From IMG/VR virus record IMGVR_UViG_3300025528_000383: a stretch of DNA of 64,000 nucleotides; one strand, written 5' to 3'. Source of the DNA: a virus. A program made the position numbers and the translations under genes. Positions 5,077 to 62,200 of this stretch are shown one piece after another (the stretch's first letter is position 1; each line of letters opens with the position of its first letter). Under the pieces are notes generated by a model. It had not been told where the DNA came from. It was given only the letters and a program-made list of their open reading frames with translations, and did no database searches.

Positions 5077-5199
5077 GAATAATCTTCTCCTTCCTATCTG
5101 TATGAGATCACTAACATAGAGCAAATGGAGGAAGAACACGAGGGATGACATCCTTCGTGCTCACTTCGTGACGAGTTCAGGTGTTGGTCGCATCCACGT

Positions 5200-7784: not shown

Positions 7785-7897
7785 GCTCTCTCTCCCGATC
7801 AATGTGCCTTTGTCTCTTTCCTTTTAGATGTGCAACAACCTCTTCTTTTCAATTGTTAACGACTGTAAAACGTGGGACAAATCGACCTTTATGCTCA

Positions 7898-20018: not shown

Positions 20019-20041
20019 CCCTCCTTCATATCTCATTTACC

Positions 20042-22476: not shown

Positions 22477-23391
22477 TCAATTCCGATAATAGAGGAGGTC
22501 GTTTTGCGACTTCAGCCCGAGGAAACGGATCACCGCCTCCTCGACTTTTTCGAAGTCAAGCGGGAGTGGAAAATCCTTGTTTCCCCAGGTTCGGGTCGGA
22601 ATATCGAAATAAACCGTCCCCCATTCCGTTCCGGTGGAAAGTCGCACATAAAGCCGACGGAACATTTCCCGTTTGTTTTTCCTCTTTTCCCAGTATTTGA
22701 CCTGTTTCACTTTCACCGGGGTGTGAGCAATCCGTGCCGGCATCGGCCCTACATCTCTCTTCCGCTCCAAGGCTTCTGGAGCTAACTTGCGGATGAATTC
22801 GATCAGACACTTGGCAGTGCCGACCGTATCGTCTGTGGCCTGGTGATGATGTTCAAACGGGATGTTGAGCAACTCGCACATGGTATCGAGCCGGTACCCG
22901 CCCCGTCCTAGGCCAGGCACGAGCTTTTTGAACAGTTTCATCGTGCAGAGCGTATCGTTGTTGGGAAAGATCCCGACCTTTTGGAAAGCAGGCAGAAGAA
23001 ATCGATTCCAGTCAAACTCGACGTTGTGCCCAACCACGACGGCGTCGCCAATGAAGCGGTAGAAATCGGGAAGTATCTGGTAGATGGTCGGCTGATTCGC
23101 CACATCCTCATTGGAAATCCCGGTGAGGTTTGCGATCTTTGCCGGAATCTTGAGCTGCGGGTTTACCAGGGTGGAGAACGTGTCGCCGATACGTCCGTTC
23201 AGAACACGGACGGCTGCGATTTGGATGATTCGTCCCCCTTTTTGAGGAGAATAGCCCGTTGTCTCGATATCGAGGACGACGAAATGCGGGCGTTTCAACA
23301 GCTCCAATTCTCCATCAAGGTTATCGCTCTGCCACCGGATATCTTCGACCGGTTTCACCGATTCTGGCATCTTGGGTTCTCCCCCTTTCAT
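22477..23391 (-). CDS. dnaQ: DnaQ/PolC-type DEDDh 3'-5' exonuclease
   Basis: LDIETTG, HNVEFD, HHQATDDT. Confidence 0.88.
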   Translation of the reverse strand: MKGGEPKMPESVKPVEDIRWQSDNLDGELELLKRPHFVVLDIETTGYSPQKGGRIIQIAAVRVLNGRIGDTFSTLVNPQLKIPAKIANLTGISNEDVANQPTIYQILPDFYRFIGDAVVVGHNVEFDWNRFLLPAFQKVGIFPNNDTLCTMKLFKKLVPGLGRGGYRLDTMCELLNIPFEHHHQATDDTVGTAKCLIEFIRKLAPEALERKRDVGPMPARIAHTPVKVKQVKYWEKRKNKREMFRRLYVRLSTGTEWGTVYFDIPTRTWGNKDFPLPLDFEKVEEAVIRFLGLKSQNDLLYYRN

Positions 23392-36541: not shown

Positions 36542-39500
36542 TCAGTAGATAACCCTCACGTTTTCTTTTCCGAGGAGATGCTGAAGCCGGTCGATGGTTT
36601 CGCCGTTGTGGTACCCCTTTAGCTCCCGTCCTCGACGAGTCTTGTATTCTTTTCCGTGGTATACGAACCGGATCGGGATCGTATTTTGGAAACCGTTCTT
36701 CTTCACGTCCGCCAGAATTTCTTCGATTTCGTCCAATTCCCTTTGTGCTTGGACAGAGTTGTCAGACAGTACGAGCTGGATGGCTTCCGGTTCGGTGACG
36801 GCAGTTAATGACTCGACCGTTCCAATGGATTCGGTCTTAAATTGCAACCCCCGGTCGCTGTAAGATACCGTGCCGATGAAGTAGAGCACAGCTCCTTCCT
36901 TTAGGAGATCACTGTACTGGTGGTAGGTTTGTGGGAAAATGACCGCACGGATCGATCCGGTTTCATCCTCGATTTCGTAATTTGCCATCCGTTCACCCTT
37001 CTTGGTGACAAACGGCTCGATTTCCTGAGCGACCCCGACGAGCGTGGCTTTGAATTCTCGTTCCTTACGCTCTGTTTCCTCTCCTTCTTCCTCTTCCATT
37101 TCGTCCTCTAGGGCAAGGAATTGGTGAATTTTGTGGAAATCTTTGATGTGCAGACTGGAGAGGAACGGGAGGTATTGGTCAATTGGGTGTCCTGTCACGT
37201 AGAACCCGGTATATTCTTTTTCTTTCATAAGTCGGGTATGCACATCAAGCTCCCCGGCCTCCTCCGGCATGGTCAATACTTTCATGACGGGCTGAAAGGC
37301 TTTCGCAGCAAAGAGCGGGACCACTCTTTCCTTTTTCGCCTCCTTAATGGTCGAGGCAATACCAAGAAGTCGGTCCAGTTGGGAGAGTTTTTCTTTCCGT
37401 GTTCCAGGGAACCCATCCAAGGAACCGGAATAAATCAAGGCTTCTATCATCCGCTTGTCGATGCGTTGGTACAACGCCATTCGTTGAATGAAGTCGAATA
37501 AGTCCCGGAACTTACCTCTTACTTTCCGCTCCTCGATGATGAATTCCCCGGATTTTCCCATGTTTCTGAGACCGGAGAATCCGAAGCGGATCGCCCCATC
37601 CTGTACGTTAAAATTCGTCTCGGAGGCGTTCACGTCCGGCGGAAGGACAGAAATGCCCCGCTCCTTGCAGACGCCGATGAACTGTTTGATTCTGTCAGAT
37701 TTCGTCTTGTACGAGTTGAGGATTTCGCAGAGCATCTCCGTCGGGTAATGGCAAGCAAGGTACCCGCTCATGGCAGAGATGGCCGAATATCCAACGGCAT
37801 GACTTTTGTTGAAGGCGTATTCAGCAAACTTTTCCATGCGGTTCCAGATATCCTCGGCAAGATCAAGCGGAACGCCCATCTTCTGACATCCCTTGATGCC
37901 AAGATCATCTGAACCGTACAGGAAGTAGTCCTTGTACTGTTCAATGATTTCCTTCTTCTTCTTGCCCATCGCCTTGCGGATCGTGTCGCTTTGCCCCCGG
38001 CTGAATCCGGCGAGTTCCCGAACGATAAACATGACCTGTTCTTGGTAGACAATAACGTTGTAGGTCGGCTTCAAGATCCGCTCAAGCTCGGGTAGATCGT
38101 AGACAATGTTGTTCGGGTCGAGCATGTTTTTCAGATAGTTGGGGATTTCCGCCATCGGTCCCGGCCGGTAGAGGGAAATACCTGCCACGAGACGTTCGAA
38201 ACATTCCTCCGCACTCTTCGGGTCGTCCGGATCCATCCGGTCGATGTCCTGAAAGAGCTGTTTCATGAGGTCGGTCATCCCCGCCGATTCGAGTTGAAAT
38301 ACCCCGGCTGTATTGCCGTCCCGAATGAATCGGTATACGTCGAGGTCCTTTTTGGCCACCTCCGACAGGCTGTTGATGTCGAGCGGTTCTAACCCTTCCG
38401 CCAACCGTTTTTGGTTCGCTCGGGCGAGGACACGGTCAATGACGCCCATCATGCGGAGGCCCAAAAAGTCCATTTTGAGAAGCCCCATCTCTTCACATTC
38501 CACCATGTCAAACTGCGTGACGGTTTCCCGCTCTTTCGTTTCATTGTTGACGGCTGTTGCCTGTGGAATGAAGTCGGTCACGGGACCTGGAGCGATAATG
38601 TAACCGCAGGCGTGAATGGACGTGTTTCTCGGCAGCCCTTCCAGTTTCATCCCCATATCAACGACTTTCTTCACGTCAGGATCCGATTCGTACATCTGGC
38701 GAAATCCAATGTCATGAGCGATCAAGTTTTTGAGGGAGATATCGAGGCTTTTTCCGTCCACTTCCAATTTCTCTGGAATCATTTTGGCGATTTTGTCCCC
38801 GAAGGAAGACGGATATCCCATCACCCTTGCCATGTCCCTCACGACGAGTTTTGCCCCCATCGTGCCGAAGGTGATGATCCCAGAGACAGAATCCTTGCCA
38901 TACAGATCCCGGACATATTCCAGTACCTCTTCCCGGCGAGTATCCGGGAAGTCCATGTCGATGTCCGGCATGGAAATCCTATCCGGATTCAAAAAACGTT
39001 CAAAAAGAAGTCCGTAGGGGATTGGATCGATGTTCGTGATGTTCAGGCAGTAAGCGACAAGCGATCCGCAGGCTGAACCCCGTCCCGGCCCTACCGCCAA
39101 TGGTGCCGGATCGTAACCTTTCTTTTTGATGAAGGTTTTCCACCTTTCAGCGGTCTTTTCATCCACTTGGTCATAAGCCCGCTTCGCATAACCGACATAA
39201 TCGGCCACGATCAGGAAATAACCCGGGAATTTCATCTTTTCAATGGTCTCAATTTCGAATTCCAGACGCTCCCGGTATTCTGGGTCATTGTATTGTGGTT
39301 TTCCTTTGAAACGGTGCTCGAATCCCTTATGCACCAAAAAGCGGAAGTATTCGCTCTGGTCTTTGAAACCTTCCGGCACGGGGAACACAGGCATGTGATG
39401 TTGCCCCATCTTGATTTCACATTGAATGCGTTCCGCCAATTCAAGGGTGTTGTCAAGGAGCTCGGGAAGATCGTGAAAGAGAGTTTCCATCTCATCTGAA

Positions 39501-40648
39501 GAGTGGATGTGATACCCCGTGCCCGGGAACGTCCAGTGGTTCGGATCGGTCAACTTTGATTTCCTACCGATGCACAAGCTCGCTTCATGAGCGTTGGCGT
39601 CTTCCTTATTGGTGTAATGGCTATCCGCCGTTGCTACAACCTTGAGTCCATATTGCCTCCCCAATTGGAGAATTTCTGGATTCAACATCTTTTCTTCAAG
39701 GAGATTGTGGCGTTGAATTTCAAGGTAGACGTTTTCTTTCCCGAAAATTTCTATCAAGCGACGAATGACGTTTTCGGCGATATCCTTCCGTCTATTCAAG
39801 ATGGCACGGGGAAGTTCTCCTGCTAAGCAGGCGGTCAGAACGACGACCCCCTCATGGTATTTCTCCAGATCCTCCCAATCGATCTGCGGGCGACCTTTTG
39901 TGTATTTCTGTTGGCCGATGGAAACGAGTTTGAAGAGATTTTTCAAACCGGTTTCGTTCAATGCCAGAAGCACAAGATGGTTATGAGCATCAGCTTTCTT
40001 AATCAAGAGGCTCTGTCCACCTGGGACCTCAACCTCTTCAGGTTTTTTAAGGGCCGCGGCGAACCCTTCTTCCTTTGTTGGGAATCCTTTCAGACGGATG
40101 TGCGGATTTGCTTCCAAAAGCCGTTCCACCGGGACGTGGTTCCGTTTTGCGATGAGGTGCAGCGTGTCCCCGTCTTTCGTCTGATAGAAATAATCAAGAC
40201 TCGATGTATAGGCTTCGAATCCCAAGATCGGCTTTTTCCCGTATTTTTTCATGGCTTTATAAAACTTTAAGGCCCCAAACATATTCCCGTGGTCGGTCAA
40301 AGCAAAGGCGAGCTCCGCTTTCCTGGCGATATCCTCCATTCGGGAAATGCCATCCAGGAGAGAATAGCAGCTATGTCCATGAAGCGGGATGTATTTTACA
40401 ATGTTTAAAATTCCCGTTTCGTAGTCGTAAATGGCCGGATATTCTGTCCGCTTTGTCCGGAAGATCTTTTCTGTCTCTTCCCGACCAAGGGTCTTCACCA
40501 AGTTTCCCTTCCAGTCATAGACTAAGGTATGCTCACCTTTCCGTTCTACAAGAAAGAGACGCTCCCGGAACAGTTCATCCGCCGGCCGTTCCTTTCCGTT
40601 TCCATTCATTTTTTCCTGTTTCAACGGCAAATCAAGAGCGAGTTCCAT
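36542..40648 (-). CDS. dnaE: DNA polymerase III alpha subunit (DnaE) with a LysM insertion in the PHP domain
   Basis: HGHSCYSLLDG, TDHG, GRGS, MPDIDMD, YAFNKSH, C-terminal OB fold; insert YQTKDGDTLHLIA...LLEANP...GQSLLI. Confidence 0.95.
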   Translation of the reverse strand: MELALDLPLKQEKMNGNGKERPADELFRERLFLVERKGEHTLVYDWKGNLVKTLGREETEKIFRTKRTEYPAIYDYETGILNIVKYIPLHGHSCYSLLDGISRMEDIARKAELAFALTDHGNMFGALKFYKAMKKYGKKPILGFEAYTSSLDYFYQTKDGDTLHLIAKRNHVPVERLLEANPHIRLKGFPTKEEGFAAALKKPEEVEVPGGQSLLIKKADAHNHLVLLALNETGLKNLFKLVSIGQQKYTKGRPQIDWEDLEKYHEGVVVLTACLAGELPRAILNRRKDIAENVIRRLIEIFGKENVYLEIQRHNLLEEKMLNPEILQLGRQYGLKVVATADSHYTNKEDANAHEASLCIGRKSKLTDPNHWTFPGTGYHIHSSDEMETLFHDLPELLDNTLELAERIQCEIKMGQHHMPVFPVPEGFKDQSEYFRFLVHKGFEHRFKGKPQYNDPEYRERLEFEIETIEKMKFPGYFLIVADYVGYAKRAYDQVDEKTAERWKTFIKKKGYDPAPLAVGPGRGSACGSLVAYCLNITNIDPIPYGLLFERFLNPDRISMPDIDMDFPDTRREEVLEYVRDLYGKDSVSGIITFGTMGAKLVVRDMARVMGYPSSFGDKIAKMIPEKLEVDGKSLDISLKNLIAHDIGFRQMYESDPDVKKVVDMGMKLEGLPRNTSIHACGYIIAPGPVTDFIPQATAVNNETKERETVTQFDMVECEEMGLLKMDFLGLRMMGVIDRVLARANQKRLAEGLEPLDINSLSEVAKKDLDVYRFIRDGNTAGVFQLESAGMTDLMKQLFQDIDRMDPDDPKSAEECFERLVAGISLYRPGPMAEIPNYLKNMLDPNNIVYDLPELERILKPTYNVIVYQEQVMFIVRELAGFSRGQSDTIRKAMGKKKKEIIEQYKDYFLYGSDDLGIKGCQKMGVPLDLAEDIWNRMEKFAEYAFNKSHAVGYSAISAMSGYLACHYPTEMLCEILNSYKTKSDRIKQFIGVCKERGISVLPPDVNASETNFNVQDGAIRFGFSGLRNMGKSGEFIIEERKVRGKFRDLFDFIQRMALYQRIDKRMIEALIYSGSLDGFPGTRKEKLSQLDRLLGIASTIKEAKKERVVPLFAAKAFQPVMKVLTMPEEAGELDVHTRLMKEKEYTGFYVTGHPIDQYLPFLSSLHIKDFHKIHQFLALEDEMEEEEGEETERKEREFKATLVGVAQEIEPFVTKKGERMANYEIEDETGSIRAVIFPQTYHQYSDLLKEGAVLYFIGTVSYSDRGLQFKTESIGTVESLTAVTEPEAIQLVLSDNSVQAQRELDEIEEILADVKKNGFQNTIPIRFVYHGKEYKTRRGRELKGYHNGETIDRLQHLLGKENVRVIY

Positions 40649-40686
40649 ACGTTTCCCTTCTTTCTCCTCCATGCTTTCTATTTCTA

Positions 40687-40715
40687 TTGTATTTTTACAA
40701 TTTCCTATAGTCAAC
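40687..40715 (-). promoter_or_regulatory. dnaE promoter TTGACT-17-TACAAT; operator copy 40700-40715
   Basis: Read directly. Confidence 0.75.
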
Positions 40716-40750
40716 AGAAAAAAGGAGCCGTCTCAGAGACGACTCCTTTA

Positions 40751-42919
40751 TTACTTTATTTCTTGTTCTAAAACTTTGACGAGATGAGCTGGGATATTTT
40801 CCGGCTCAGTCATGATGATTCCATGCTGATACATCTCTCGGTACGATGTACGTGTTTTTTCTAAATGCTCTTTTGAGCCGAAGCAGATTGCGATGACGAT
40901 AACGCCCTGTTTACGGGCGTCCCGCACCGCATTCTTCACACTCGTGATGGCATCTTTCTCATCGATATAACTCGAAGGAAGCCCATCCGATAGTACGAAG
41001 AGAATTTTCTTCGACTCCGGCCGTTTCAAGAGCTCTTTGGTGGCGATGCGGATGGAGATGCTGTCCGCATTACAAGAGCCATAACGCCATTCCGCCGACC
41101 AGGAACGATTTACGGATTCCGTGTCCCCAAAGTCGGAAATGACTTCGTGTCGGACCAGATCCGGCGGAAAACCGGAGGGGACGAAATCATCATCAAACAG
41201 GACAATCCGAAAAGGTACCAGTCCACGCAACCCCTCTTCAAGGATGGCACAGGCTTCTCTGGCATAGTCCTTTTTAGTCTTTCCATCTTTCACATATTCA
41301 GTCATGGAACCGCTATTATCCACCAAAACCTCGACGACATAGGTGGAATCCTGCGGGTTTCCACGTTTGACAAACACATCGTACTCCTTAACCCCTACCC
41401 TCCAGAGGGCATTGGAGTCAAGGCGGCCACGCCTGCGATTCCGGGCAGTGTAGCCCTGCTTGTCCAGAAGAATTTGTTTCAGTCTCCTGGACAGCTTCTT
41501 ACCCGGGTGAAGGATATGATCCGGCACAGGACTTGGTTGGATGTCCGCATGGGTCAGTTCAAACTCAAAAAACCCACGACCTTTCAGAGCATCCTGGAGT
41601 TCTCGTTTGGTCAGGTCGCCGGATTCCGCTTTTTTGCGGGCTTTTTCCCGTTGAATACGGAGCTCCTCGTTTTTGATCTGTTGCATGTCATTTTCCAGAT
41701 CATCCAACAGATCATTTTGGGCGTTTTGGAGGAATTCATTGACCAGTTTCTCTTCTTCTTTTGCCCATTGCTCCGATTCGTCGGTCAGGTCGTTCGAATC
41801 ATTTTGATCCGAATCTTCCGCTTCCCCGGCTTGACCGTCTTGGGAAGCGTCATCCGGTTTACTGGATTTCCCGCTTTGATCCTTTTGGTTTTCTCCGTTC
41901 GGGTTTGGGATGGGATTTCCCTTCACCGATTGCGGTTTCCCGACGGATTGCGGGCTATTTTGGTCGTCCGCATCCGAAACGCCTTGTGGTTGTTCCGGGA
42001 CGAAGTGAGTGGATACTTCTCCGACATATGAAACTGAATCCTGCTTGGATTTTTTCCCGCCACCCTGTGTCGAGAAGTTAGGCGTGTCGGGAAGAGCACT
42101 CATCGCTCCCGTGTCTTGCATCAGAAGCTCGACGACGAGGGGAACAATGCGTTCATAAATTTCAAACGTCACATCCGCACAGCCCTGGGGCGTCGGTTCA
42201 TTGATGGCCCGGATGATCAGCGGACGAATCTCGTCCAGCTTCCGGTCCATTTCCGTGCCTCCATAGACATCGCCCCACTTATGGGATTTAAGACCCGTGA
42301 CGCACATGGTGGTCACTGCAAACAAAAATTCCATAAGCGGATTCTGTCCATTTACCGGTTGGTTTTGCCAGATGAGGGCATTCATGAATTGAACATGTTT
42401 CAGATAGCCCCTCATCCGGGTCACCAATCGTTTTTCAATTCGACCATCCTCGGTGCTGTTCAACAAGTGGGCACCGAGTTTGATTCCGCACTGATACGTG
42501 TTCACCGGCAGAATCTTGCCGGGATGGAGCTGATAGACCCGTTTTTGAAAATCTTCGGCAACCTGCTCCTGGAACTTCTTAAAAATCTCAAAATCGCTTG
42601 ACCGAACATGTTCAGTTTCATGACCGGTCAAGGCTTTCAGAACCGAGAAGACCATTTCGTGAGGCATTCCCCACACGTATCGGGGGACACCCACCGTGAT
42701 GGATTTACTGTCTGTGAAAGACCCCGAATCCATCAAAAGGCGGAACTTCACCTTCGGGTGTCCAGCCGGAAGCAAGTGGATGATCGTCCGATACAAGATA
42801 TTGTACACAGACTGTCTCGCGATGAACCGGCGTGTGTCATCATATCGTTTTTTTGTATCATGATCGAGCCCGGCCATCAATAAACGAGCCCGTTCGATTT
42901 CCTCAAAAATATTTGACAT
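40751..42919 (-). CDS. VWA protein with N-terminal HExxH (HETEH) region and low-complexity linker (CobT/DUF2201-like architecture)
   Basis: MIDAS DNSGS, VLSDG; HETEH at 42608-42622. Confidence 0.8.
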   Translation of the reverse strand: MSNIFEEIERARLLMAGLDHDTKKRYDDTRRFIARQSVYNILYRTIIHLLPAGHPKVKFRLLMDSGSFTDSKSITVGVPRYVWGMPHEMVFSVLKALTGHETEHVRSSDFEIFKKFQEQVAEDFQKRVYQLHPGKILPVNTYQCGIKLGAHLLNSTEDGRIEKRLVTRMRGYLKHVQFMNALIWQNQPVNGQNPLMEFLFAVTTMCVTGLKSHKWGDVYGGTEMDRKLDEIRPLIIRAINEPTPQGCADVTFEIYERIVPLVVELLMQDTGAMSALPDTPNFSTQGGGKKSKQDSVSYVGEVSTHFVPEQPQGVSDADDQNSPQSVGKPQSVKGNPIPNPNGENQKDQSGKSSKPDDASQDGQAGEAEDSDQNDSNDLTDESEQWAKEEEKLVNEFLQNAQNDLLDDLENDMQQIKNEELRIQREKARKKAESGDLTKRELQDALKGRGFFEFELTHADIQPSPVPDHILHPGKKLSRRLKQILLDKQGYTARNRRRGRLDSNALWRVGVKEYDVFVKRGNPQDSTYVVEVLVDNSGSMTEYVKDGKTKKDYAREACAILEEGLRGLVPFRIVLFDDDFVPSGFPPDLVRHEVISDFGDTESVNRSWSAEWRYGSCNADSISIRIATKELLKRPESKKILFVLSDGLPSSYIDEKDAITSVKNAVRDARKQGVIVIAICFGSKEHLEKTRTSYREMYQHGIIMTEPENIPAHLVKVLEQEIK

Positions 42920-42982
42920 AATAAATTCCTCCTCCTTTTGAAATAAAGGAAGGGGAGAAAACTCCCGCTTCCCTGCCTCATG

Positions 42983-44680
42983 TCAACCTGCGATATCATC
43001 CACCAGCGAAGCCACCGTCGCACGGTATTCGAGGTCGTTGATCCGGTTGGCCACGTTATCGAGCAACGCCTCGTAAATACCCAGCCGATCGGCGACCTTA
43101 AGGGCGTCAATGTACCCTCTCACCGTGATGCAACGTTCGGAGATCTGACCGTCCTGATAGAGCTTCATAATGCTTTGGTAGAGTTTGTCACAAATCTCGA
43201 TATCGGACGGTTTCGCCTCCGGCACCCGATGAGCCAACATCTTGGCGATGCTCGGTACGTCCGGGAAGATTACCGGCACAAACCGGTCGTTCACGGCTTC
43301 CGGAAGTTCCTTCGTCCCCACATATCCCAGCGGGTTCATCGTGGAGATGATCCGGAATTTCGGATGAATTTCTACAAGCCCGTACCCGGGGACCTGAAGC
43401 CTCCGGCGGTCATCCAAGATGGATTGAAGGGCGAACAACGGTCCATCGTCCGCCGCGTTGATTTCATCCAGGTCGAAGAATCCACCAACTTCCATCGCTT
43501 GGATTAACGCTTCACGGTCGAACGACATCTTGGTGATCTGTCTACCTTCTTCGTCTACTTCGGATTCGAACGTTTTTGATCCGAAGAGATCGAATTTGTC
43601 CGTCTGTTCGGTCATGCAAAACTCGAATAGCGGACGTTGGTAGACCCAAGCCAAGGTTTCAATCAACGTATTCTTGCCGGTTCCCTTGCCGCCCTCGAAC
43701 CGCAGGAAAAACCCGGCGTTCAAGTAGACAATGGACTTCCGGACAACCCCGATGGCGTCGAAGAACTTCGTTTTTGGCCGTCGGATGATCCGGTGTTGGA
43801 ACTCTTCCGGAACCGGTTCATACGACTCAAAGATCTCCTTGATCAAATTTTCTTCGACGTCGCATTTACGGAGGTATTTCTCGATTTCCTCCAATCGGTC
43901 TGCCGGAACGATCCCTTTATCGATTACCGCCTTCTTCACCTCGGGTAAAGTCAGGATGACCTTGCCCGCCAACACGTCGTCGAAGGTTTCTTGGTCGATT
44001 TCACAGCGGACCGAATAAGAATTTCCGCTGGCTTCGACCGCTTCGACGATTTGTGCCGCACCTCGCTTGGCGAGGCATTCCAGATAGGCTTGGAATTTTT
44101 CCATATCGCCCGTTTCAGCTTTATGTACCAAGCCGGCTGGAACTTCCTGTCCATTTTCGGACAGGAAGGCGATGATTTTTCCGCCTTCCGCTTTCACCCA
44201 CAAAGCCGGTTTGTTTCCGGCTTGCAATTCCCGCAAGACCTTTGTTTTGGCTTTATATTCCTTGATGGAACCCCTCACATGGAGAACAAATTCCATCACG
44301 TTTCTGGTTTCTTGCGGGGGGTTGGGTAGGATGGCTTCCAGGATGAAGGCTTTCCTGGTTGATCCGTCTCGGAACGTGACCTCACCTTCATCAACCACGA
44401 CTCCGTCACAAACCATGTACCCCGAGCCATCTTTTTGGAGCCCTCTCTCCACCATTGCGTCATAGAGAGCCTCATTGTTCTTCGTGCCCTCTATAACCGT
44501 TGATCCGTACTGTTTCCCGACCACACCGAGTTGCTCGGTCATGGCCTCATCCCAAACAGAAATCACTTTGGGATCGTAGACGGCCCCTTTGCTCGTGGGG
44601 TCATGGACCAACTTCACACGCTGACCGACACTCAAACGCAAGCTGTGCCGGGCATTGAAAACAGTCACTTTCATTTTCAT
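42983..44680 (-). CDS. MoxR/CbbQ-like AAA+ ATPase with N-terminal HIRAN-like domain
   Basis: GGKGTGKN, LDEIN, TMNP..Y.GT..L..A..DRF; N-terminal GQRVKLVHDP...YDPKVISV...LGVV. Confidence 0.85.
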   Translation of the reverse strand: MKMKVTVFNARHSLRLSVGQRVKLVHDPTSKGAVYDPKVISVWDEAMTEQLGVVGKQYGSTVIEGTKNNEALYDAMVERGLQKDGSGYMVCDGVVVDEGEVTFRDGSTRKAFILEAILPNPPQETRNVMEFVLHVRGSIKEYKAKTKVLRELQAGNKPALWVKAEGGKIIAFLSENGQEVPAGLVHKAETGDMEKFQAYLECLAKRGAAQIVEAVEASGNSYSVRCEIDQETFDDVLAGKVILTLPEVKKAVIDKGIVPADRLEEIEKYLRKCDVEENLIKEIFESYEPVPEEFQHRIIRRPKTKFFDAIGVVRKSIVYLNAGFFLRFEGGKGTGKNTLIETLAWVYQRPLFEFCMTEQTDKFDLFGSKTFESEVDEEGRQITKMSFDREALIQAMEVGGFFDLDEINAADDGPLFALQSILDDRRRLQVPGYGLVEIHPKFRIISTMNPLGYVGTKELPEAVNDRFVPVIFPDVPSIAKMLAHRVPEAKPSDIEICDKLYQSIMKLYQDGQISERCITVRGYIDALKVADRLGIYEALLDNVANRINDLEYRATVASLVDDIAG

Positions 44681-44819
44681 AAAATTTAACCTCCCTTTAG
44701 AAATACATTGCCGCATACGACGGCAATTCCATTGTTATAAAACTTCCTTGTATCCTACTAACGGGGAGATATTTTTATAATCGGTGTGGAGATGGATAGG
44801 AAGGGATGAACAAATCAAA

Positions 44820-46782: not shown

Positions 46783-47769
46783 TCAGTCGGTATCTGTTTT
46801 TTTCTTCGTTTTGTCCGTCGGCAGTTCCAGTTCGGCAACCCGACCGAAGCCGGCGATAAACCGTTTCCAGTAGCCTTGGAGCGAAGCAACCTTCACCCCG
46901 GAGTTTTGGGCGTTGATCATCTGTCCGTTTCCGACGTAGATGCCCACATGGCTGATTCTTTTCCCGAAACTGAAGAAAACGAGGTCGCCGGGTTTCACAT
47001 CGGAAGGTTCGAGGCGTCGAGTGGCAAGATATTGTTGGGCGGCAGTGCGAGGCAGTTCAATGCCAGCCTTTTTAAAGGACCACTGAACGAGGCCCGAACA
47101 GTCGAAGCTGGACTCGGGATTCGCTCCGCCCCAATGGTATGGGTAGCCCAAGTAACGTATGGCTTCATTCAGCACGGTCAAGCGGTCGCCCAGGTTTTTG
47201 GAGAGAGCTTCCTGCTCGGCCTTCCGGATTTTCAACTTGGCATAATTCTCCTGGAGCGAGCGAGATTGACCCCGTAGGAGCTCCTCACGATTTTCCAGCC
47301 ATTTCTTCTGCTTGTTCAATCGTTCATAGTCCTTTTTCTGAGTCTCCATAAGGCTCATGTCCTCTTCCATCAGAGCGTGGATGACGAACGCCCGCTGGAA
47401 CCGTTCGTTGAGCAAGTTAGAATCCAACGGGACAGTGAGGTTGGATAAGGAATCGCTGTTGGTTTGCAGGGCATGAAGGCGGCTGTCGATCAGTTGTTGC
47501 CGATTTTTAACCCTTTCCCGGGTTTCCTTGAGTTTCTCGTCGGTTTCCCGAATCTGTTTCCGTGTTGCCTCGAATTGTCTCTTTTTCTGCTTGATTTCCG
47601 TTTCCTTTTTAACCAGCTCCTCTTTCAACTCTCGAATCCGTTGATCGACTTCCCGCTTCTGGGTAGACAGTGGGCTTTTAATATCTGAATTGTTATCTGC
47701 CATGACTTTCGTCGGAACGGCATTTAGGAAGCCGACTGAGAGAGCCAGAAGGAGCATCTGTTGTTTCAT
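46783..47769 (-). CDS. Secreted coiled-coil NlpC/P60 endopeptidase (CwlO-like; start revised)
   Basis: Signal peptide, coiled coil, FDCSGL, HVGIY. Confidence 0.88.
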   Translation of the reverse strand: MKQQMLLLALSVGFLNAVPTKVMADNNSDIKSPLSTQKREVDQRIRELKEELVKKETEIKQKKRQFEATRKQIRETDEKLKETRERVKNRQQLIDSRLHALQTNSDSLSNLTVPLDSNLLNERFQRAFVIHALMEEDMSLMETQKKDYERLNKQKKWLENREELLRGQSRSLQENYAKLKIRKAEQEALSKNLGDRLTVLNEAIRYLGYPYHWGGANPESSFDCSGLVQWSFKKAGIELPRTAAQQYLATRRLEPSDVKPGDLVFFSFGKRISHVGIYVGNGQMINAQNSGVKVASLQGYWKRFIAGFGRVAELELPTDKTKKKTDTD

Positions 47770-47902
47770 GGAATTCACTCCTTTTTTAACCCCATTTTCT
47801 CGATCTAACAGAAAACCCCTTCGAATCGCATTCGAGGGGGTCCATAAGTTTTTATTTATCTTAGACGGGAAAAAGGGGAAAATTCCAAACCGCCCGTCCG
47901 AC

Positions 47903-48427
47903 TCAGGCGGGGCCGCACCCCGTCTGATTGTAAAACGTCTCCATTTCCTCGTCGGAGAGCGGATTTTGGGCAAGGTTGACAGATTCTAAGCCTTTGAGTT
48001 GGTAAAGTATCCGAATCGAGGGGATCCGGTTATGGTAGAGGGAAACCCGGCGGACATTCGGAAAATGGAGCAGAATCTCATCCGTCTCCAACCCACAATT
48101 ACGAAGTTCCAACTCTTCTACCGAATCAAACGTGACAAAGAGGTTCGTCCAATCAATTTGCGGGTTGTCCGATAGATCCAGATATCGTAAGCGGGGAAGC
48201 ATCGCAAGCGGCGAGATGTCCGTAAACCGGTTCCCGCAGAGATGAAGAGTTTCGAGATTTCGGCAGAGTTCGATCCCGAAAAGATTCCGGATCTCCCGCT
48301 GGTTGGCGTTCAGATAACGGATTTTGGAAAGCGTTTTTTCGTCCACGTCCCGACGGATGAGACTCGAACGGTTGATGATTCTATCAAAAAGCCGATACAA
48401 GGCCACATCTGGAATGTTCGGTTTCAT
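47903..48427 (-). CDS. Cytoplasmic leucine-rich-repeat protein (internalin-type repeats)
   Basis: LETLHLCGNRFTDISPL, LRYLDLSDN, LELRNC, VSLYHN, VNLAQN. Confidence 0.8.
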   Translation of the reverse strand: MKPNIPDVALYRLFDRIINRSSLIRRDVDEKTLSKIRYLNANQREIRNLFGIELCRNLETLHLCGNRFTDISPLAMLPRLRYLDLSDNPQIDWTNLFVTFDSVEELELRNCGLETDEILLHFPNVRRVSLYHNRIPSIRILYQLKGLESVNLAQNPLSDEEMETFYNQTGCGPA

Positions 48428-55585: not shown

Positions 55586-57970
55586 TCAAAAAGTCCGCTC
55601 ATTTTCCTGAAGAAATTTTGGGTTGGGATATTCCAACACATGGAGAACCGTTTCCCAACGAATCTTTTCCATCGCTTCACCGAACGCCTCGAAAGCGAGA
55701 CGACTGTATTCGTCGATCGGCTTGACCTGCTTGTAGCCGGCGTACCGCACCGCATCTCGCAGGGCATCCAGTGTAACGAGGTGATCTTGCCAGATGCGAT
55801 CTACAGTCTGGAGCAGGAAGGTACGGAAATGCTCTTCCAAATGACCTTCACGGATGAGTTCCGTCTGTTGAATAGCCTTTTCCTGGATCTTCTCTTTCAC
55901 AAATTCCGTCACCTCGTCCAGACTGTCTAGATCCGGTTCGATCGGGATAGGTTCTACACCGATTAGGCGAAGCACTCGCTCCAAGCGGGCTTTAACTTCT
56001 TTTTCACCCTCTCCACCGTCTGCTTCCGACCAGGCCAGGGCCACTTCTTCCCATTCCTTGGTGAGGACTTCCTCCACCATTTTGCGGAGTTCTCCCACGA
56101 TGTCAAAATTCGGTTCCAGGATTTCATCCCGTTGCTTGTACACGATCGCTCGTTGTTCGTGATCAATGGCATCGAATTCGATCGTTTGTTTGCGGATTTC
56201 GAAATGACTGCCTTCCAGCCGTTCCTGAGCGGAATGGATTGCATTCAACAGAATTTTGAGGTTAATCGGCTCATCTTCATCTATATTCAAAAATTCCAGC
56301 CGCTTCTTGATATTTTTCGGAGCGAAGATACGGAGTAGGTCGTCATCAAATGACAGATAGAACTGACTCATCCCAGGATCCCCTTGGCGTCCGGCCCGGC
56401 CGATCAGTTGGTTGTCGATTCGCCGGTTTGCCGCTCGTTCGGTTCCGATGACCTTTAAACCCCCGAGCTCTTTCACTCCTTCACCGAGTTTAATATCTGT
56501 GCCTCGGCCGGCCATGTTGGTGGCGATGGTAACCGCACCCTTTTGCCCAGCTTGAGCAACGATAGCCGCCTCCTTAGCGTGGTTTTTCGCATTCAAAACC
56601 ACATGCGGAATGCCTTCTGCATCGAGCATCTGGGAAAGCTGTTCGGATTTTTCGATGGAACTTGTTCCGACGAGCACCGGTTGCCCCTTTTTGTGGCACT
56701 CACGGATGTCCTTCACAATCGCTCGCAGCTTGGCTTCACGGGTCAGGTAGAGCTGATCGGGAAGGTCTTTCCGAATAACCGGTTTATTGGTGGGGATCGT
56801 CACCACATCAAGACCGTAGATGTCCTTGAACTCCTCGGCGGCGGTGGCGGCCGTTCCGGTCATTCCTGCCAGCTTCTCGTAGAGAAGGAAAAAGTTTTGA
56901 TAGGTAATGGAAGCGAGCGTCTTAGATTCCTTCCGAATCTGTACGCCTTCTTTCGCCTCCAACGCTTGATGGAGGCCGTAGGAATACCGCCGGCCTTCGG
57001 AAATTCGACCCGTTCCCTCGTCAATAATCTTAACTTGGTTTTGGGTCAGGATATAGTCTTTGTCCCTTTTCATGATGTAGTGGGCTTGAAGGGCCTTGTC
57101 GATGTGAAAACGCAACTCGGCGTTTTCCGGGTCGGAAATATTGTTCACCCGGAACATCTCCTCGATTTTCCGCACCCCTTCATCCGTCAAGAGAACCGCA
57201 CGGGCTTCCTCGTCGATGGTGAAGTCTTTTCCTTTCCTCAGTTTCCTTACACAAAGATCCGCCAAGTGATACCATACGCTTGGTTCTTCTCCAGCCCCAG
57301 AGATGATCAACGGCGTGCGAGCGTCGTCCAACAGAACACTGTCCACTTCGTCCACGATACAGTAGTGGAGTTCCCTCAACACTTTGTCGTCTTTTGAATA
57401 GACCATGTGATCACGCAAGTAATCAAATCCGACTTCCGAGTTCGTGACGTACACAATATCCGCCCGATAGGCTTCTCGCTTATCATGCGTTTCCATACCC
57501 TCCGTCACCACAGCGGTGGAAAGGCCCAAAAACCCGTACAGCGGAGCGAGTAGGTCATGATCCCGGTTCGCCAGGTATTCGTTCACCGTGACGATATGTA
57601 CCCCTTTGCCAGTGAGGGCGTTCAAGTACGCCGGCAGCGTAGCCACCAACGTCTTCCCTTCCCCGGTAGCCATCTCGGCGATGTCGCCTTCGTGTAGAAC
57701 GATTCCACCTATGACCTGCACAGGATAATGCGTCATGCCGAGGATGCGTTTTGAGGCTTCCCTCACAACTGCATAGGCTTCCGTGAGGAGATCATCCAAT
57801 GTCTCCCCGTTTTCGAGGCGTTGTTTGAATTCCGCCGTTTTAGCGGAGAGTTCCACATCGGAAAGGCGAGCGATCTCCGGCTCCAAGGCCAGCACCCGTT
57901 CCGCCCGTTTTTTCAATCTATTCAAATGGATATCGTTTTCCTTCTTTTTCAGTAGTCCCAAAAGTCCCAT
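55586..57970 (-). CDS. secA: SecA ATPase lacking the C-terminal tail/zinc-binding domain (SecA2-like length)
   Basis: MATGEGKT, VTVNEYLA.RD, DEVDSVL, TNMAGRGTDI, RRIDNQL.GRAGRQGDPG. Confidence 0.93.
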   Translation of the reverse strand: MGLLGLLKKKENDIHLNRLKKRAERVLALEPEIARLSDVELSAKTAEFKQRLENGETLDDLLTEAYAVVREASKRILGMTHYPVQVIGGIVLHEGDIAEMATGEGKTLVATLPAYLNALTGKGVHIVTVNEYLANRDHDLLAPLYGFLGLSTAVVTEGMETHDKREAYRADIVYVTNSEVGFDYLRDHMVYSKDDKVLRELHYCIVDEVDSVLLDDARTPLIISGAGEEPSVWYHLADLCVRKLRKGKDFTIDEEARAVLLTDEGVRKIEEMFRVNNISDPENAELRFHIDKALQAHYIMKRDKDYILTQNQVKIIDEGTGRISEGRRYSYGLHQALEAKEGVQIRKESKTLASITYQNFFLLYEKLAGMTGTAATAAEEFKDIYGLDVVTIPTNKPVIRKDLPDQLYLTREAKLRAIVKDIRECHKKGQPVLVGTSSIEKSEQLSQMLDAEGIPHVVLNAKNHAKEAAIVAQAGQKGAVTIATNMAGRGTDIKLGEGVKELGGLKVIGTERAANRRIDNQLIGRAGRQGDPGMSQFYLSFDDDLLRIFAPKNIKKRLEFLNIDEDEPINLKILLNAIHSAQERLEGSHFEIRKQTIEFDAIDHEQRAIVYKQRDEILEPNFDIVGELRKMVEEVLTKEWEEVALAWSEADGGEGEKEVKARLERVLRLIGVEPIPIEPDLDSLDEVTEFVKEKIQEKAIQQTELIREGHLEEHFRTFLLQTVDRIWQDHLVTLDALRDAVRYAGYKQVKPIDEYSRLAFEAFGEAMEKIRWETVLHVLEYPNPKFLQENERTF

Positions 57971-58023
57971 CTTCGGTCGTCCTTTCACCATGTTTTTGTC
58001 GTGAAGATGGCCTCTTCAGATTC

Positions 58024-58757: not shown

Positions 58758-61700
58758 TCAGCCGGTGATTCGTCCGAACTGCGGATGGTGTTCCCGCCAA
58801 TAGCCATGGGAGATGTCTTGGATGGTTACGCCGTCCCCGGAAGCGTTCCACATCTTTCCTCCGCCGATATAAAGGCCGACGTGGCTAATGTGGTACGGTC
58901 CGCCATAAGTCCCTTGGAAAAAAACCAAGTCACCGGGACGAGCCTGGCTTTCGTCAATCTTCATGACATATTTGTATTGTTCTTCCGCTGTACGTGGGAG
59001 ATTGATGCCCACTTGTTTGAACGCCCATTGGATAAGCCCGGAGCAGTCAAAATATCCTCTCGACGGGTCGTTGGCATCCGATGCCATCTTGTACGGGTAA
59101 CCGGCCACCGATTCGATGGCTTTCAGCACGGCCTCATAGTTGTATGCCTGCGTTCCGTCACCGAGAGCCAACAACATCAGACTCGGATCAAAGGATGATC
59201 CGCTCGGATCGTAGATGGAAAAACCGAGGTTGCCACGGGTTTTGGCGATGGGATCGCCTTTTTTCACCTTGTCCCCCACTTTCACCTTGATTTCCTTCAC
59301 TTGGGTATAACGGGTGACAACCCCGCCGGTATGTTTGATTTCCACCACGCCGTTCATTCGATCGACTTGGATCACTTCTCCGTCCGCCACTGCCTTGACA
59401 ACAGAGTCACTCGGAACGGTTAGCACAATGCCGGTTCCATCAAATGGCTTGGCGACCCGGTCCACCTTATCCACCGGTAAGCAATAGCCGTCTGGGAACA
59501 GGCTGTTGAGTTTTTCAAGGTTTCCCTTTGTGGTTGGGTCAATGTAGTTGGGTGGATTCGGGTTTTCAAAGAGGATCGTGTAATTTTTCTTCCAATCATC
59601 CAGAGTGATGTTCTCTTTGGTCTGGGAGAACGGGATGCGTTGAGCGAAACTCCAATACAACCGCATGAAATCCTTGACTTCATCTTCCGACATGGGGTTC
59701 GTGAACTTGGTAAACTTGTACTTGTCCTTATGCAAGAGGGCATCTGCCGGCGAGTCCTCGAAAAGCTGCGACCATTTGTCCTGAATGGCCTCAATCAAAC
59801 TGCTAAACCAAGTTTGGTTTTGGTCCGTACCGTTCCCCACGATCGCCACACCATAAGTGAGATCGCCGCTCATCGAGTGTTTGTTCCCTTTGTGGTCGAT
59901 GACATACGGAGTTTTTTCGGGGCTGGCGTAATACCGCATGACATGCTCCACGTATTGAGGATCACCATAGGTACTCGATCTCCAGCCACTAATGTACCTT
60001 TGTGGATGATCGTGAACTTCCTTGCGATAAGCCATCCAGCCAGTGTCCTTCGGGTTGGCGATGATCTCATCGATCGACTTTCCGGTGTTTTCGGAATACA
60101 ATTTGAGCACCGCCTGAATGCCGCCTGGCCCGTAGTTATAGGCTTGCAGAGCAAGGGCAATGTTGTACTTATACTGAGCCAACCTGGCGGCAAACAACAT
60201 GGTCCCGGCACGAATGTTGTCCTCTACGTCATCGACGGCCTCGGGTCCGGGAATGAGCATCTTATCCATCTGTCCGGTTTCGAGGTTGAAAGCCTTAGCA
60301 GAAGTGATGGTTCGGCCTGGGTTTTCGATTTGCATGAGCCCGTATCCGCCGTACGATCGTTTATTCTCTTCGTGGCGGCCACCGGATTCTTGAGCAACCA
60401 GGGCGACCAACAAGTACGGGTCCACCCCGTACCGTCTCCCATACTTTTGGAACAGTGGGAGATATTTGACGGCGTTCTGGTAGCTCGCATTGTTTGTGTC
60501 CACCTGTTTGGATGGGTCGAACGTGTCGTTCGCCAAAGCGAGTTCATTGTCATAGTCGCTTTGGGCATTTTCCACCTGGGATTGTTCCTGGAAGACTTCT
60601 TTCAAACCCTTGATGTCCCGCCCGGTGCGTTCTTCAATGTTGAATTTCTCCATCACCACATTCGGAACGTAGGCGGTGTAATTGGTCAGGTAATCGAAGA
60701 AGTAGCGATCCCCAACGATACCGGACGTATCCACATTTCCGGTGTACGCCGGTATTTTTTCCCAGACATAGCCGGTGTAGATCTTTTTCACCGTCTTTTT
60801 GGTCGGTACCCAACGGGTGTCCTTCACACGGGTATACACCGGATACGGGGTTTTATCCGTGGTTTGCTCGTTTTTATCGGCGGGCGTGGTAACCGGATCG
60901 TATTTCCAGTAGAGCTTATCCCCTTTCTCATTTTCCGCTTGGACGTTCTTCCAGTAGGTCTCCTTTTTCTCAGCGTCAATCTGGACTTTTGTTATTTTCG
61001 TCCATTTTTCATCCGTCTTTTCCCATTGGTACTTGATGTCTCGTTTAATCGTACCGACTGGCGTGGTCACCTTCCAGATCATATAGGTGTCTCTCGGATA
61101 ACCCGGCACTTTTTCCGTAATGGTGTCATCGCTTTCCCCGATACCATAGTTCACCGTGACGAGTTTGTGTTTTTCGAAGTCCCATTTGTAGGTTCTCGTC
61201 ACGCTGCCCCGTCTTTCCCGGTCTTCCTTAAATTTCTGATATTGAAGGATGGAACCGAACCCGTAGTCCCAGACACCCTTTACCTTCTTGTCGGTCGCCT
61301 TCTTGTTGACGTATTTGGTGCTTTTGGCGACCAAGTTACCGTCTTTGTCTGTTAACATCTTTAGGTTGAAGTTTTTGTCGTGATAGACAGGTTGGGTAAG
61401 TTGTTCGGGGAAATAGAAGCGGTTGGTGGGACCGGCATTCAGCTCGGTATCCAAGAGGTAGAGGAGATCGCTCGTCATAGTGAAATACTTTTCTCGATGG
61501 TAACGGTCCACAATATGCTGAGCCTGATTGGTGTCTCCTCGCATGAGATCCGTCACGGGTTTTCCATTTTTGTCTACAACGACTTTCCAGTAACCCCGCT
61601 GGGCCATGTAGCCGTAGAACATTTTATACAGTTTGTTGCCGTTGGTGTGCCCGGTCAAAGTGTAATCGCCCGTTTCCGAGTCAAGAACAACAGGGTTGTC

Positions 61701-62054
61701 TTCAGACGCATCTTCCGTTTGATAGTTATCTTGGAGGGCCTTAAATTCATATTCTACGTCGTAAATAAAGGCACATAACAAGAAAACAACGGATAGCACG
61801 GCCACGGCAATCAGAATGTAGGGCAACAACGCTGCGATGACCTTGATAATGGCCTTCCCAATCGCAAGAGCCGCTTTCGCCAAGGCTTTTCCGATGGCTT
61901 TGGCCAATTTTCGAGTCCCCTTCTTAAGACCTCTCCGAACGCCTTGGGTTGCCTTACGAGCGACGTATTCTGATCCCTTTTTCGTCGCCTGGGCGGCCTG
62001 GTCCGCCATCTGATCCGTTATTTCCGTGTTCGTGTCGTATTCGTTTTGGGCCAT
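58758..62054 (-). CDS. VirB1-like conjugative wall hydrolase: SLT, M23-like and NlpC/P60 domains
   Basis: TM; QESGG, GLMQI, AYNYG; AVADGEV...IKH; FDCSGL, HVGLY. Confidence 0.85.
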   Translation of the reverse strand: MAQNEYDTNTEITDQMADQAAQATKKGSEYVARKATQGVRRGLKKGTRKLAKAIGKALAKAALAIGKAIIKVIAALLPYILIAVAVLSVVFLLCAFIYDVEYEFKALQDNYQTEDASEDNPVVLDSETGDYTLTGHTNGNKLYKMFYGYMAQRGYWKVVVDKNGKPVTDLMRGDTNQAQHIVDRYHREKYFTMTSDLLYLLDTELNAGPTNRFYFPEQLTQPVYHDKNFNLKMLTDKDGNLVAKSTKYVNKKATDKKVKGVWDYGFGSILQYQKFKEDRERRGSVTRTYKWDFEKHKLVTVNYGIGESDDTITEKVPGYPRDTYMIWKVTTPVGTIKRDIKYQWEKTDEKWTKITKVQIDAEKKETYWKNVQAENEKGDKLYWKYDPVTTPADKNEQTTDKTPYPVYTRVKDTRWVPTKKTVKKIYTGYVWEKIPAYTGNVDTSGIVGDRYFFDYLTNYTAYVPNVVMEKFNIEERTGRDIKGLKEVFQEQSQVENAQSDYDNELALANDTFDPSKQVDTNNASYQNAVKYLPLFQKYGRRYGVDPYLLVALVAQESGGRHEENKRSYGGYGLMQIENPGRTITSAKAFNLETGQMDKMLIPGPEAVDDVEDNIRAGTMLFAARLAQYKYNIALALQAYNYGPGGIQAVLKLYSENTGKSIDEIIANPKDTGWMAYRKEVHDHPQRYISGWRSSTYGDPQYVEHVMRYYASPEKTPYVIDHKGNKHSMSGDLTYGVAIVGNGTDQNQTWFSSLIEAIQDKWSQLFEDSPADALLHKDKYKFTKFTNPMSEDEVKDFMRLYWSFAQRIPFSQTKENITLDDWKKNYTILFENPNPPNYIDPTTKGNLEKLNSLFPDGYCLPVDKVDRVAKPFDGTGIVLTVPSDSVVKAVADGEVIQVDRMNGVVEIKHTGGVVTRYTQVKEIKVKVGDKVKKGDPIAKTRGNLGFSIYDPSGSSFDPSLMLLALGDGTQAYNYEAVLKAIESVAGYPYKMASDANDPSRGYFDCSGLIQWAFKQVGINLPRTAEEQYKYVMKIDESQARPGDLVFFQGTYGGPYHISHVGLYIGGGKMWNASGDGVTIQDISHGYWREHHPQFGRITG

Positions 62055-62200
62055 GCCGATCCCCCCTTTTTTTCTTTCTGTCAAATGGTCTTTGGTATTC
62101 TATTAACTTGTGAATCTATTTATCGAAAATGACGAGGTGGATATCTGACGAGGGCAAAAAAAGGCCTTTGGCCATTCGACCAAAGGCCTTTGACTCGTGG

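Follow-up and report, generated by a model that had tools for sequence, protein, structure and literature searches.

In replicative DNA polymerases of the C family, the so-called long loop of the PHP domain flanks the PHP active site and comprises 29 amino acids (aa) in the enzyme of Mycobacterium tuberculosis (Mtb), 18 aa in that of Taq and 9 aa in that of E. coli (PMC5636811). It hosts the DEDD exonuclease in PolC, and in Mtb DnaE1 it forms a wall of the groove that leads to the exonuclease site; hydrogen-deuterium exchange experiments place it with the regions on which DNA has the strongest effect (PMC5636811). Within a stretch of 64,000 nucleotides, here called the window (IMG/VR virus record IMGVR_UViG_3300025528_000383), the dnaE gene of what is probably a large plasmid-like element of Bacillota with a host among the Bacilli codes for a polymerase that has a LysM domain in this very loop. 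A LysM domain inside the PHP domain of DnaE has not been described before and is a case of a known insertion port taking up a new domain: full-text searches that paired LysM with DnaE, PHP or Pol III alpha brought up no relevant paper, in agreement with a first reading made from the sequence alone (the sequence-only reading), and the word LysM is absent from two large surveys of C-family polymerases.

The polymerase is encoded on the minus strand by an open reading frame (ORF) at 36542-40714, as given by the ORF list and its translation, and while the gene callers and all homologues place its start at M23 (40648), the ORF finder starts from an in-frame TTG further upstream (40714). Pfam matches to PHP, DNA_pol3_alpha, finger, HHH_6 and OB, in this order and all five present, correspond to the architecture of a DnaE-type alpha subunit, and the NCBIfam model PRK05673 (DNA polymerase III subunit alpha) is matched with 1081 bits against a cut-off of 1002. 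A 64-sequence family alignment shows no variation in the nine ligands of the PHP domain (H112, H114, D121, H142, E167, H246, C296, D364, H366), and the catalytic motif expected as PDIDxD is found as PDIDMD at residue 583, so that the sequence-only reading was right to consider both sites intact. A set of nine such ligands (five His, three Asp or Glu, one Cys) marks the active PHP exonucleases (PMC5636811), and from its ligands the window enzyme is predicted to be competent as an exonuclease. By eye, the N-terminus of the protein has no hydrophobic signal-like stretch, and DnaE is therefore taken to be cytoplasmic.

Between the motifs GFEAY and HLVLLA, which carry the metal ligands E167 and H246, respectively, the DnaE translation holds the string YQTKDGDTLHLIAKRNHVPVERLLEANPHI...GGQSLLI. 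It had been proposed from the letters alone that a LysM domain is inserted in the PHP domain here, at 40001-40186, where normally only a short loop is found. Residues 177-238 correspond exactly to this span on the minus strand, Pfam, profile and models agree on the inserted LysM, and the loop at this site is indeed short, with 11 aa, in the sister DnaEs that are the nearest relatives. From motif to motif the distance amounts to 78-88 aa in the clade with the insert as compared to 16 aa in the sister DnaEs, and according to alignments to the structures 2hpi, 5lew and 4jom the insert takes the place of Taq residues 82-92, E. coli residues 71-79 and Mtb residues ~72-95. Since this loop hosts the DEDD exonuclease in PolC, the LysM domain occupies the port of the PolC exonuclease, and the notion of the loop as a neutral spacer has to be given up, given its place beside the PHP exonuclease site (PMC5636811). 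Within the LysM domain itself, 31 residues separate the conserved N in helix 2 from the GQxLxI strand, compared to ~12 in canonical LysM domains. An internal insert had thus been recognised correctly, but its size of ~25 aa was put too high for the window, where the surplus piece has ~19 aa (16-25 aa across the clade). This piece is the most variable part of the insert, whereas the conserved residues in the alignment of 14 inserts are those of the LysM fold consensus. The window insert has a net charge of 0, and values down to -9 are found in its relatives.

With respect to the identity of the insert, PF01476 (LysM; curated cut-off 20.9 bits) matches residues 177-207 in the full protein with E = 1.7e-4 and 21.9 bits and in the isolated piece with E = 3.8e-6 and 27.2 bits, the aligned span covering model positions 1-30 of 43, and 13 of the 14 homologous inserts match this family independently. 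A profile built from the 14 inserts returned LysM domains as the first nine chains in a comparison with PDB (Ecp6, Thermus P60, YkuD, MltD, SafA, YaaH). When 1.84 billion representative sequences were scanned with the profile, the best matches outside DnaE, which came after the representatives of the clade itself, were each hit 6-14 times at the insert columns, and the one that was checked (P0123) contains 15 Pfam LysM repeats.

An AlphaFold2 (AF2) model of the insert alone, based on the 14-row alignment and 76 residues long, has a predicted local distance difference test value (pLDDT) of 80 and shows a strand at 6-9, helices at 16-23 and 27-33, an extra helix at 45-54 and a strand at 66-69, i.e., the predicted structure has the beta-alpha-alpha-beta fold of LysM plus one extra helix. 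Almost all of the top 45 PDB rows obtained with Foldseek are LysM domains, with template modelling (TM) scores of 0.70-0.78 when normalised to the LysM chains of 46-49 aa and with weak E-values of 0.03-1, as expected with a query of 76 residues. VIA-align, which is independent of Foldseek, found 14 chains with Z of at least 5 (top 6.8), nearly all of them LysM or LysM-like, at a root mean square deviation of 1.6-2.5 Å over ~50 residues for model residues 1-72. Modelled in the context of the PHP domain (mean pLDDT 94.5, predicted TM score 0.89), the insert reaches pLDDT values of 84-95 and again adopts a LysM fold and not that of an ordinary loop; the confidence within this model suggests that the domain is docked rather than floppy. 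Superposition of the rest of the PHP model on PHP structures from DnaE gave TMq values of 0.72-0.74, which is as expected because ~20% of its residues are extra. The checks proposed together with the sequence-only reading, namely a HMMER search with PF01476, AlphaFold modelling of the PHP region and a survey of the insertion among DnaE homologues, which yielded 14 long-form clusters and a compact clade of 5, thus all turned out in its favour.

It could be argued that an ordinary, if elaborated, PHP loop fits a short and degenerate motif by chance. The Pfam score is barely over the cut-off and covers only 30 of 43 model positions, the Foldseek E-values are weak, and Z values below 8 can be obtained from common arrangements; the absolute fold scores are indeed modest, and the weight of the structural comparison comes from the LysM purity of the match lists. 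However, four independent lines concur, i.e., the hidden Markov model in 13/14 inserts, the profile-to-PDB comparison and two structural aligners with near-pure LysM lists. In addition, the best profile matches outside DnaE are multi-LysM proteins aligned at the insert columns, among them P0123, and the compact clade matches LysM on its own account, so that a chance resemblance is considered highly improbable. Identity, fold, position, conservation and rarity in DnaE are counted as established, and the identity of the insert is held with high confidence. The coordinates of the insert, of the polymerase and of other genes in the window are compiled in the Table.

Table. Position of the LysM insert, of the dnaE gene and of further genes in the window.
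Feature	Position	Strand	Basis or remark
dnaE coding sequence	36542..40648	-	1368 aa from M23, stop included; P0002 and homologues begin MEL.L.L
~85-aa N-terminal extension preceding PHP	40394..40648	-	N-termini of P0002-P0030 compared
PHP part 1, ligands H112, H114, D121, H142, E167	40208..40384	-	Pfam PHP at residues 111-336; invariant columns
Whole insertion, residues 170-245	39980..40207	-	replaces the 11-aa loop of sister DnaEs; alignments break here
LysM-fold core, residues 177-238 (strand, helix, helix, extra helix, strand)	40001..40186	-	Pfam, PDB profile, AF2, Foldseek, VIA-align
Strand 1, GDTL loop, helix 1, helix 2 to conserved N, residues 177-207	40094..40186	-	Pfam LysM positions 1-30
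Clade-specific extra segment, residues 208-229	40028..40093	-	replaces the canonical helix2-strand2 loop; segment not present in compact clade
Helix within extra segment, residues 214-223	40046-40075	-	modelled (AF2)
Strand 2 region V-P-G-G-Q-S-L-L-I (GQxLxI motif)	40001..40027	-	Q and I invariant across 14 inserts; modelled strand
PHP part 2, ligands H246, C296, D364, H366	39617..39979	-	Pfam, alignments, residue mapping
PDIDMD, polymerase catalytic motif, residue 583	38951..38968	-	translation and motif search; intact
AAA_5 (MoxR/CobS-like) ATPase and ~720-790 aa VWA/CobT_C-like protein	40751-44716	-	immediately upstream of dnaE; also in L081, L082, L087
DnaQ-like 3'-5' exonuclease	22477-23391	-	Pfam RNase_T, E = 9e-34, residues 38-194; ~110-aa basic C-terminal tail
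SecA paralogue	55586-57991	-	without C-terminal SEC-C (PF02810) tail, unlike chromosomal-type SecAs in the same match list
1108-aa SLT + M23 + NlpC/P60 hydrolase	58758-62084	-	cell-wall enzyme
PcsB-like NlpC/P60 protein	46783-47973	-	cell-wall enzyme
Class A penicillin-binding protein (PBP)	17217-20036	-	cell-wall enzyme

Relatives were searched for among 5.8 billion clustered proteins, with identities calculated over residues 100-345. In its long form, i.e., with the extra segment, the insert was found in 14 clusters (P0002-P0015) with identities of 56-100%, and the next relatives (P0016-P0030) have the 11-aa loop. The exhaustive profile scan of the 1.84 billion representatives gave only two full-length matches and, in addition, P0145, which is 38% identical overall and in which a compact, normal-length LysM occupies the same site. 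Together with P0268-P0271, P0145 (e.g., L085 10001-14029) forms a compact clade of five members, the profile of which aligns to 41 of 48 residues of the MltD LysM (E = 7.5e-5) and is related to the long-form profile with a probability of 94% according to hhalign. The PHP ligands are largely lost in this clade, HGH being changed to QGK, the Cys being gone and the H of HLVLLA being gone in 3/5 members, and the LysM has been kept despite this loss.

All carriers are metagenomic. The 19 clusters come from Logan and ENA, one further contig from the JGI metagenomes (L089) is a copy of the P0008 form, and neither NCBI nor UniRef is among the listed sources of the carriers. A scan of IMG/VR with the 14-insert profile found no relatives of the insert, tblastn of the insert plus its flanks against PLSDB gave no match, the phage collection contained just a Moorella phage with a non-LysM insert in the loop and one flank-only match, and a feature search of the ESM Atlas with the compact insert gave no usable match; a scan of GTDB with universal PHP motifs had a LysM insert in 0/80 among the matches listed and is uninformative on cultured genomes. 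The samples that hold the sequence or its relatives are from bioreactors, soil, compost, and food production or abattoirs. LysM-in-DnaE is thus rare but conserved, and it is seen in metagenomes only. Because its carriers are listed in neither NCBI nor UniRef, annotation pipelines have not come across it.

In phylogenetic trees built with the insert columns left out, the long and the compact clade together with four insert-free sisters form one clade under LG+G4 (support of 99 in the Shimodaira-Hasegawa-like approximate likelihood ratio test, SH-aLRT), and under the site-heterogeneous model LG+C20 the long and the compact clade come to lie on one side of a branch (SH-aLRT 96). These topologies favour a single gain of the insert in this DnaE lineage as the probable course, a gain followed by a loss or two separate gains being less likely. 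The insert shows neither decay nor deletion in any member of the clade. A variant of the stretch from a soil metagenome is 97% identical with no indels, and of its seven differences within the insert six are synonymous, the single replacement residing in the variable extra segment; this pattern indicates that the insert is probably kept under purifying selection. Furthermore, the stretch at 39700-40750 is found whole and identical in a 13-kb contig from a metatranscriptomic library of the same kind of bioreactor sample, although a contig from an RNA library is no proof of transcription, as carry-over of DNA is possible.

The loop also holds other sequences. An acidic run of 75 aa (P0235) and inserts of 20-30 aa (P0142, P0146, P0151), all unrelated to the LysM, reside in the same PHP loop, and the DnaE-like polymerase of the Moorella phage MTATph1 (177 kb; OR602862.1 88450-91662; L084 8905-12117) has an insert of ~55 aa there, in which neither LysM nor any other Pfam domain was matched. 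Since mobile-element DnaEs carry such unrelated inserts at this site, the loop is a permissive insertion hot spot in these enzymes. Elsewhere in the protein, the N-terminal extension of ~85 aa has no Pfam match, and extensions of similar length that are loosely alike (..LF..R..F.A.Y...) occur across the whole group of mobile-element DnaEs (P0002-P0030). Intein-type domains (precomputed Pfam PF14890, PF13403) are found in the relatives P0006, P0007, P0014 and P0025 (1613-1737 aa), which belong to the clade of the window DnaE and to neighbouring ones, the window gene itself having no such domain. A match in a Jeotgalibacillus megaplasmid comes in three pieces over 5.5 kb.

As to what the insert may do, the best explanation, which taken as a whole is given about an even chance of being correct, is that a domain of LysM origin, inserted in the PHP domain of a replicative polymerase of the DnaE type at the tip of the long loop, now serves as a contact module. 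The domain would have given up the binding of cell-wall glycans and would stand as a rigid module at the surface of the proofreading face, next to where the PHP exonuclease is entered and where PolC bears its exonuclease, and it would there either offer a contact surface to a partner protein or shape this face of the enzyme. Its functional part, a non-glycan role in protein contacts or in structure, is put forward more tentatively. The glycan groove of LysM domains is formed by the strand1-helix1 loop and the helix2-strand2 loop (Mesnage et al., PMC4083421). The canonical groove is not found in the insert: the GDTL loop is kept, but in 14/14 long-form inserts a helical segment of 16-25 aa has taken the place of the helix2-strand2 loop. 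That half of the groove has been rebuilt, and that the insert is neutral to acidic, supports a reading other than sugar binding and leaves the sensing of wall fragments and the binding of glycosylated DNA, both of which had been considered from sequence, without support; glycan sensing by the insert therefore appears unlikely. Of the three early ideas, reuse as a protein-interaction module fits best, although this is something we infer. LysM-like folds of Kbp and of phage or contractile-injection baseplates are among the structural matches, and because the compact clade keeps the LysM with most PHP ligands lost, the module seems to be independent of PHP catalysis.

Several observations weigh against this explanation. 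Conservation is good in the GDTL loop, which forms the remaining half of the glycan site, and in the compact clade the helix2-strand2 loop is of normal length, so that sugar binding would still be conceivable. No partner protein was found for the insert, and its placement with respect to the entrance of the active site as well as any filling of the groove by the extra helix are presumed. An insert in a permissive loop need not have a function, and under LG+G4 the insert-free sisters fall within the LysM group, as neighbours of the long form (SH-aLRT 91). For E. coli, the text of a paper on epsilon and the PHP domain (PMC3664792) makes no link between this PHP loop and the binding of epsilon.

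Among the competing explanations, the one that ranks highest, albeit as an unlikely one, holds that a piece coding for LysM landed in the permissive loop and was tolerated there, kept foldable but with no function. A passenger of this kind would be in line with the unrelated inserts in the same loop (P0235; P0142, P0146, P0151; MTATph1), with a loop length between 9 and 29 aa among characterised DnaEs (PMC5636811), and with the fact that the conserved residues are merely the LysM fold consensus while the extra segment is the most variable part. However, the insert has been kept across two clades that are only 38% identical and through the loss of PHP catalysis, it is neither decayed nor deleted in the clade, with 6/7 changes being synonymous in a close variant, and it is modelled as a confidently placed domain. 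Next in rank, and rather doubtful, is a gate or guide in proofreading, by which the LysM would enlarge the wall beside the PHP exonuclease site and steer or limit the entry of the primer 3' end. The loop of the insert is the one that in Mtb forms the wall of the groove to the PHP site and is most changed on DNA binding (PMC5636811), the long-form clade has all nine PHP ligands intact, and the base of the loop after strand 2 (N-A-K-N-H) is nearly invariant, all of which would suit such a role; a net charge of 0 to -9, in turn, is poor for a contact with DNA, and the compact clade retains its LysM though the PHP ligands are lost.

Ranked last of the three is a sensor in which the LysM binds GlcNAc-containing wall precursors, recycled muropeptides or sugar-modified DNA and thereby couples the replication of the element to them. 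The GDTL loop, the conserved N and the GQxLxI motif have been retained, the LysM of the compact clade is of canonical length and its profile aligns over most of the MltD LysM, and the element is rich in cell-wall enzymes (class A PBP, NlpC/P60-SLT-M23 hydrolases). However, the conserved motif residues are needed for the fold too, the helix2-strand2 loop and with it half of the groove is replaced in the window clade, there is no other LysM in the window to mark an exchange of wall-linked modules, and GlcNAc-X-GlcNAc chains are not expected in the cytoplasm, all of which renders a sensor improbable. It is mainly GlcNAc-X-GlcNAc within a glycan chain that LysM domains recognise (PMC4083421). Finally, the LysM might act as a switch where the PHP proofreading site opens, operated by a ligand or a partner, and couple the replication or fidelity of a giant plasmid to an envelope or developmental signal, for example a muropeptide, a wall precursor or a SafA/SpoVID-like LysM contact in sporulation. 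This is regarded as very improbable, but if true, a replicative polymerase would be under the direct influence of a regulatory input of a new kind.

With respect to the genes around dnaE, the host is probably a member of the Bacilli because the relatives of the SecA paralogue as well as the nearest plasmid DnaEs are from Bacillales-type elements. These DnaEs belong to Bacillales megaplasmids and are 40-51% identical. The nearest named relatives of the SecA paralogue reside on contigs of ~500 kb from the Bacillus thuringiensis/cereus group and from Rossellomorea, so that the carriers look like a family of megaplasmid-like elements. The longest contig listed for its own cluster has 233,797 bp; contigs with the LysM measure 185-234 kb, 188 kb, 112 kb and 205 kb, and that of the insert-free sister 627 kb. 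The paralogue also travels with the LysM-DnaE, namely as P0390 on the 187,814-bp contig of P0003 and as P0403 and P0404 on the contigs of P0013 and P0014. Other long-form elements share with the window a syntenic order of an NlpC/P60 protein, a HerA-like ATPase, an AAA_5 ATPase, a VWA protein and dnaE. Since the AAA_5/VWA pair also precedes the gene of an insert-free sister, it is not linked to the LysM and rather belongs to the replication neighbourhood. The gene just downstream of dnaE was considered as a LysM-linked partner and rejected, as the encoded ~240-aa proteins are homologous in the window and L081 only (49% identity), with no homology to L082 or L085. Likewise, a local donor of the LysM was rejected, as the insert profile matches nothing else in the six-frame translation of the window, wall enzymes included. 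Genes for an RtcB RNA ligase (3889-5151, minus strand), a PIN-PhoH fusion (15857-17107, plus strand) and a Dam-like methyltransferase of the D12 class (6795-7802, minus strand) are also present on the element.

Given the RNase_T gene for a DnaQ-like exonuclease, the element therefore combines a PHP site with all its ligands and a separate candidate for a proofreader. RNase_T genes are found near dnaE also in the compact-LysM element (L085 21335-22045) and in an insert-free sister (L087 4954-5538). A complex prediction of the PHP-LysM part with the DnaQ-like exonuclease of the element had a score of 0.00, which is evidence neither for nor against binding.

C-family polymerases have so far been known for one foreign domain in PHP, the PolC exonuclease, and the same loop has now been found to have captured a LysM fold as well, which singles it out as a port where, in the course of evolution, domains have docked on the replicase at its proofreading face. 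The plasmid-like elements of Bacillota concerned are very large and uncultivated, and their polymerases have retained the LysM even though they diverged deeply. Three forms, namely a long LysM beside a live PHP site, a compact LysM beside a dead one, and the 11-aa loop of the sisters, together constitute a clean natural experiment on what the proofreading face contacts.

Compared to the described systems, the window DnaE resembles PolC in that a whole folded domain is placed in the same PHP loop, between the strand bearing the Glu and the next strand bearing a His (PMC5636811), and the alignment of PolC to the window DnaE begins only at the residue after the insert. However, the insert is a LysM fold of ~62 aa and not a DnaQ-like nuclease, no RNase_T match is found by Pfam inside the window DnaE, and the enzyme is of the DnaE type, with OB as its C-terminal domain and without the N-terminal domain of PolC, the DnaQ-like exonuclease being encoded by a gene of its own. 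The long loop of Mtb DnaE1 (residues 77-105) is likewise a lineage-specific lengthening beside an intact PHP site with nine ligands, but there it constitutes an unstructured, DNA-contacting wall of 29 residues, whereas the window enzyme has a folded, neutral-to-acidic domain of 76 residues including linkers.

With the canonical LysM/CBM50 domains of wall hydrolases (AtlA, MltD, YkuD, Thermus P60) the insert shares the motif set and the beta-alpha-alpha-beta fold, and it differs from them in being cytoplasmic, single-copy and embedded in another domain and in having its helix2-strand2 loop replaced. Contrary to what the sequence-only reading assumed to be the norm, LysM domains are not confined to secreted or virion proteins, as is evident from the potassium-binding BON-LysM protein Kbp (YgaU), which is among the fold matches (7pvc with Z 4.9, 8zex, 7vcm) and which we take to be cytoplasmic. 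Baseplate proteins with a LysM-like fold, from phages and from contractile injection systems, are also among the structural matches (6u5b, 9g8s, 7aeb, 9gtp; Z 4.7-5.3), and like Kbp they presumably serve contacts within or between proteins rather than the binding of cell walls. Both have other partners and another architecture, and none of these folds is part of a polymerase; the window DnaE adds a further case of a LysM domain that is used inside the cytoplasm.

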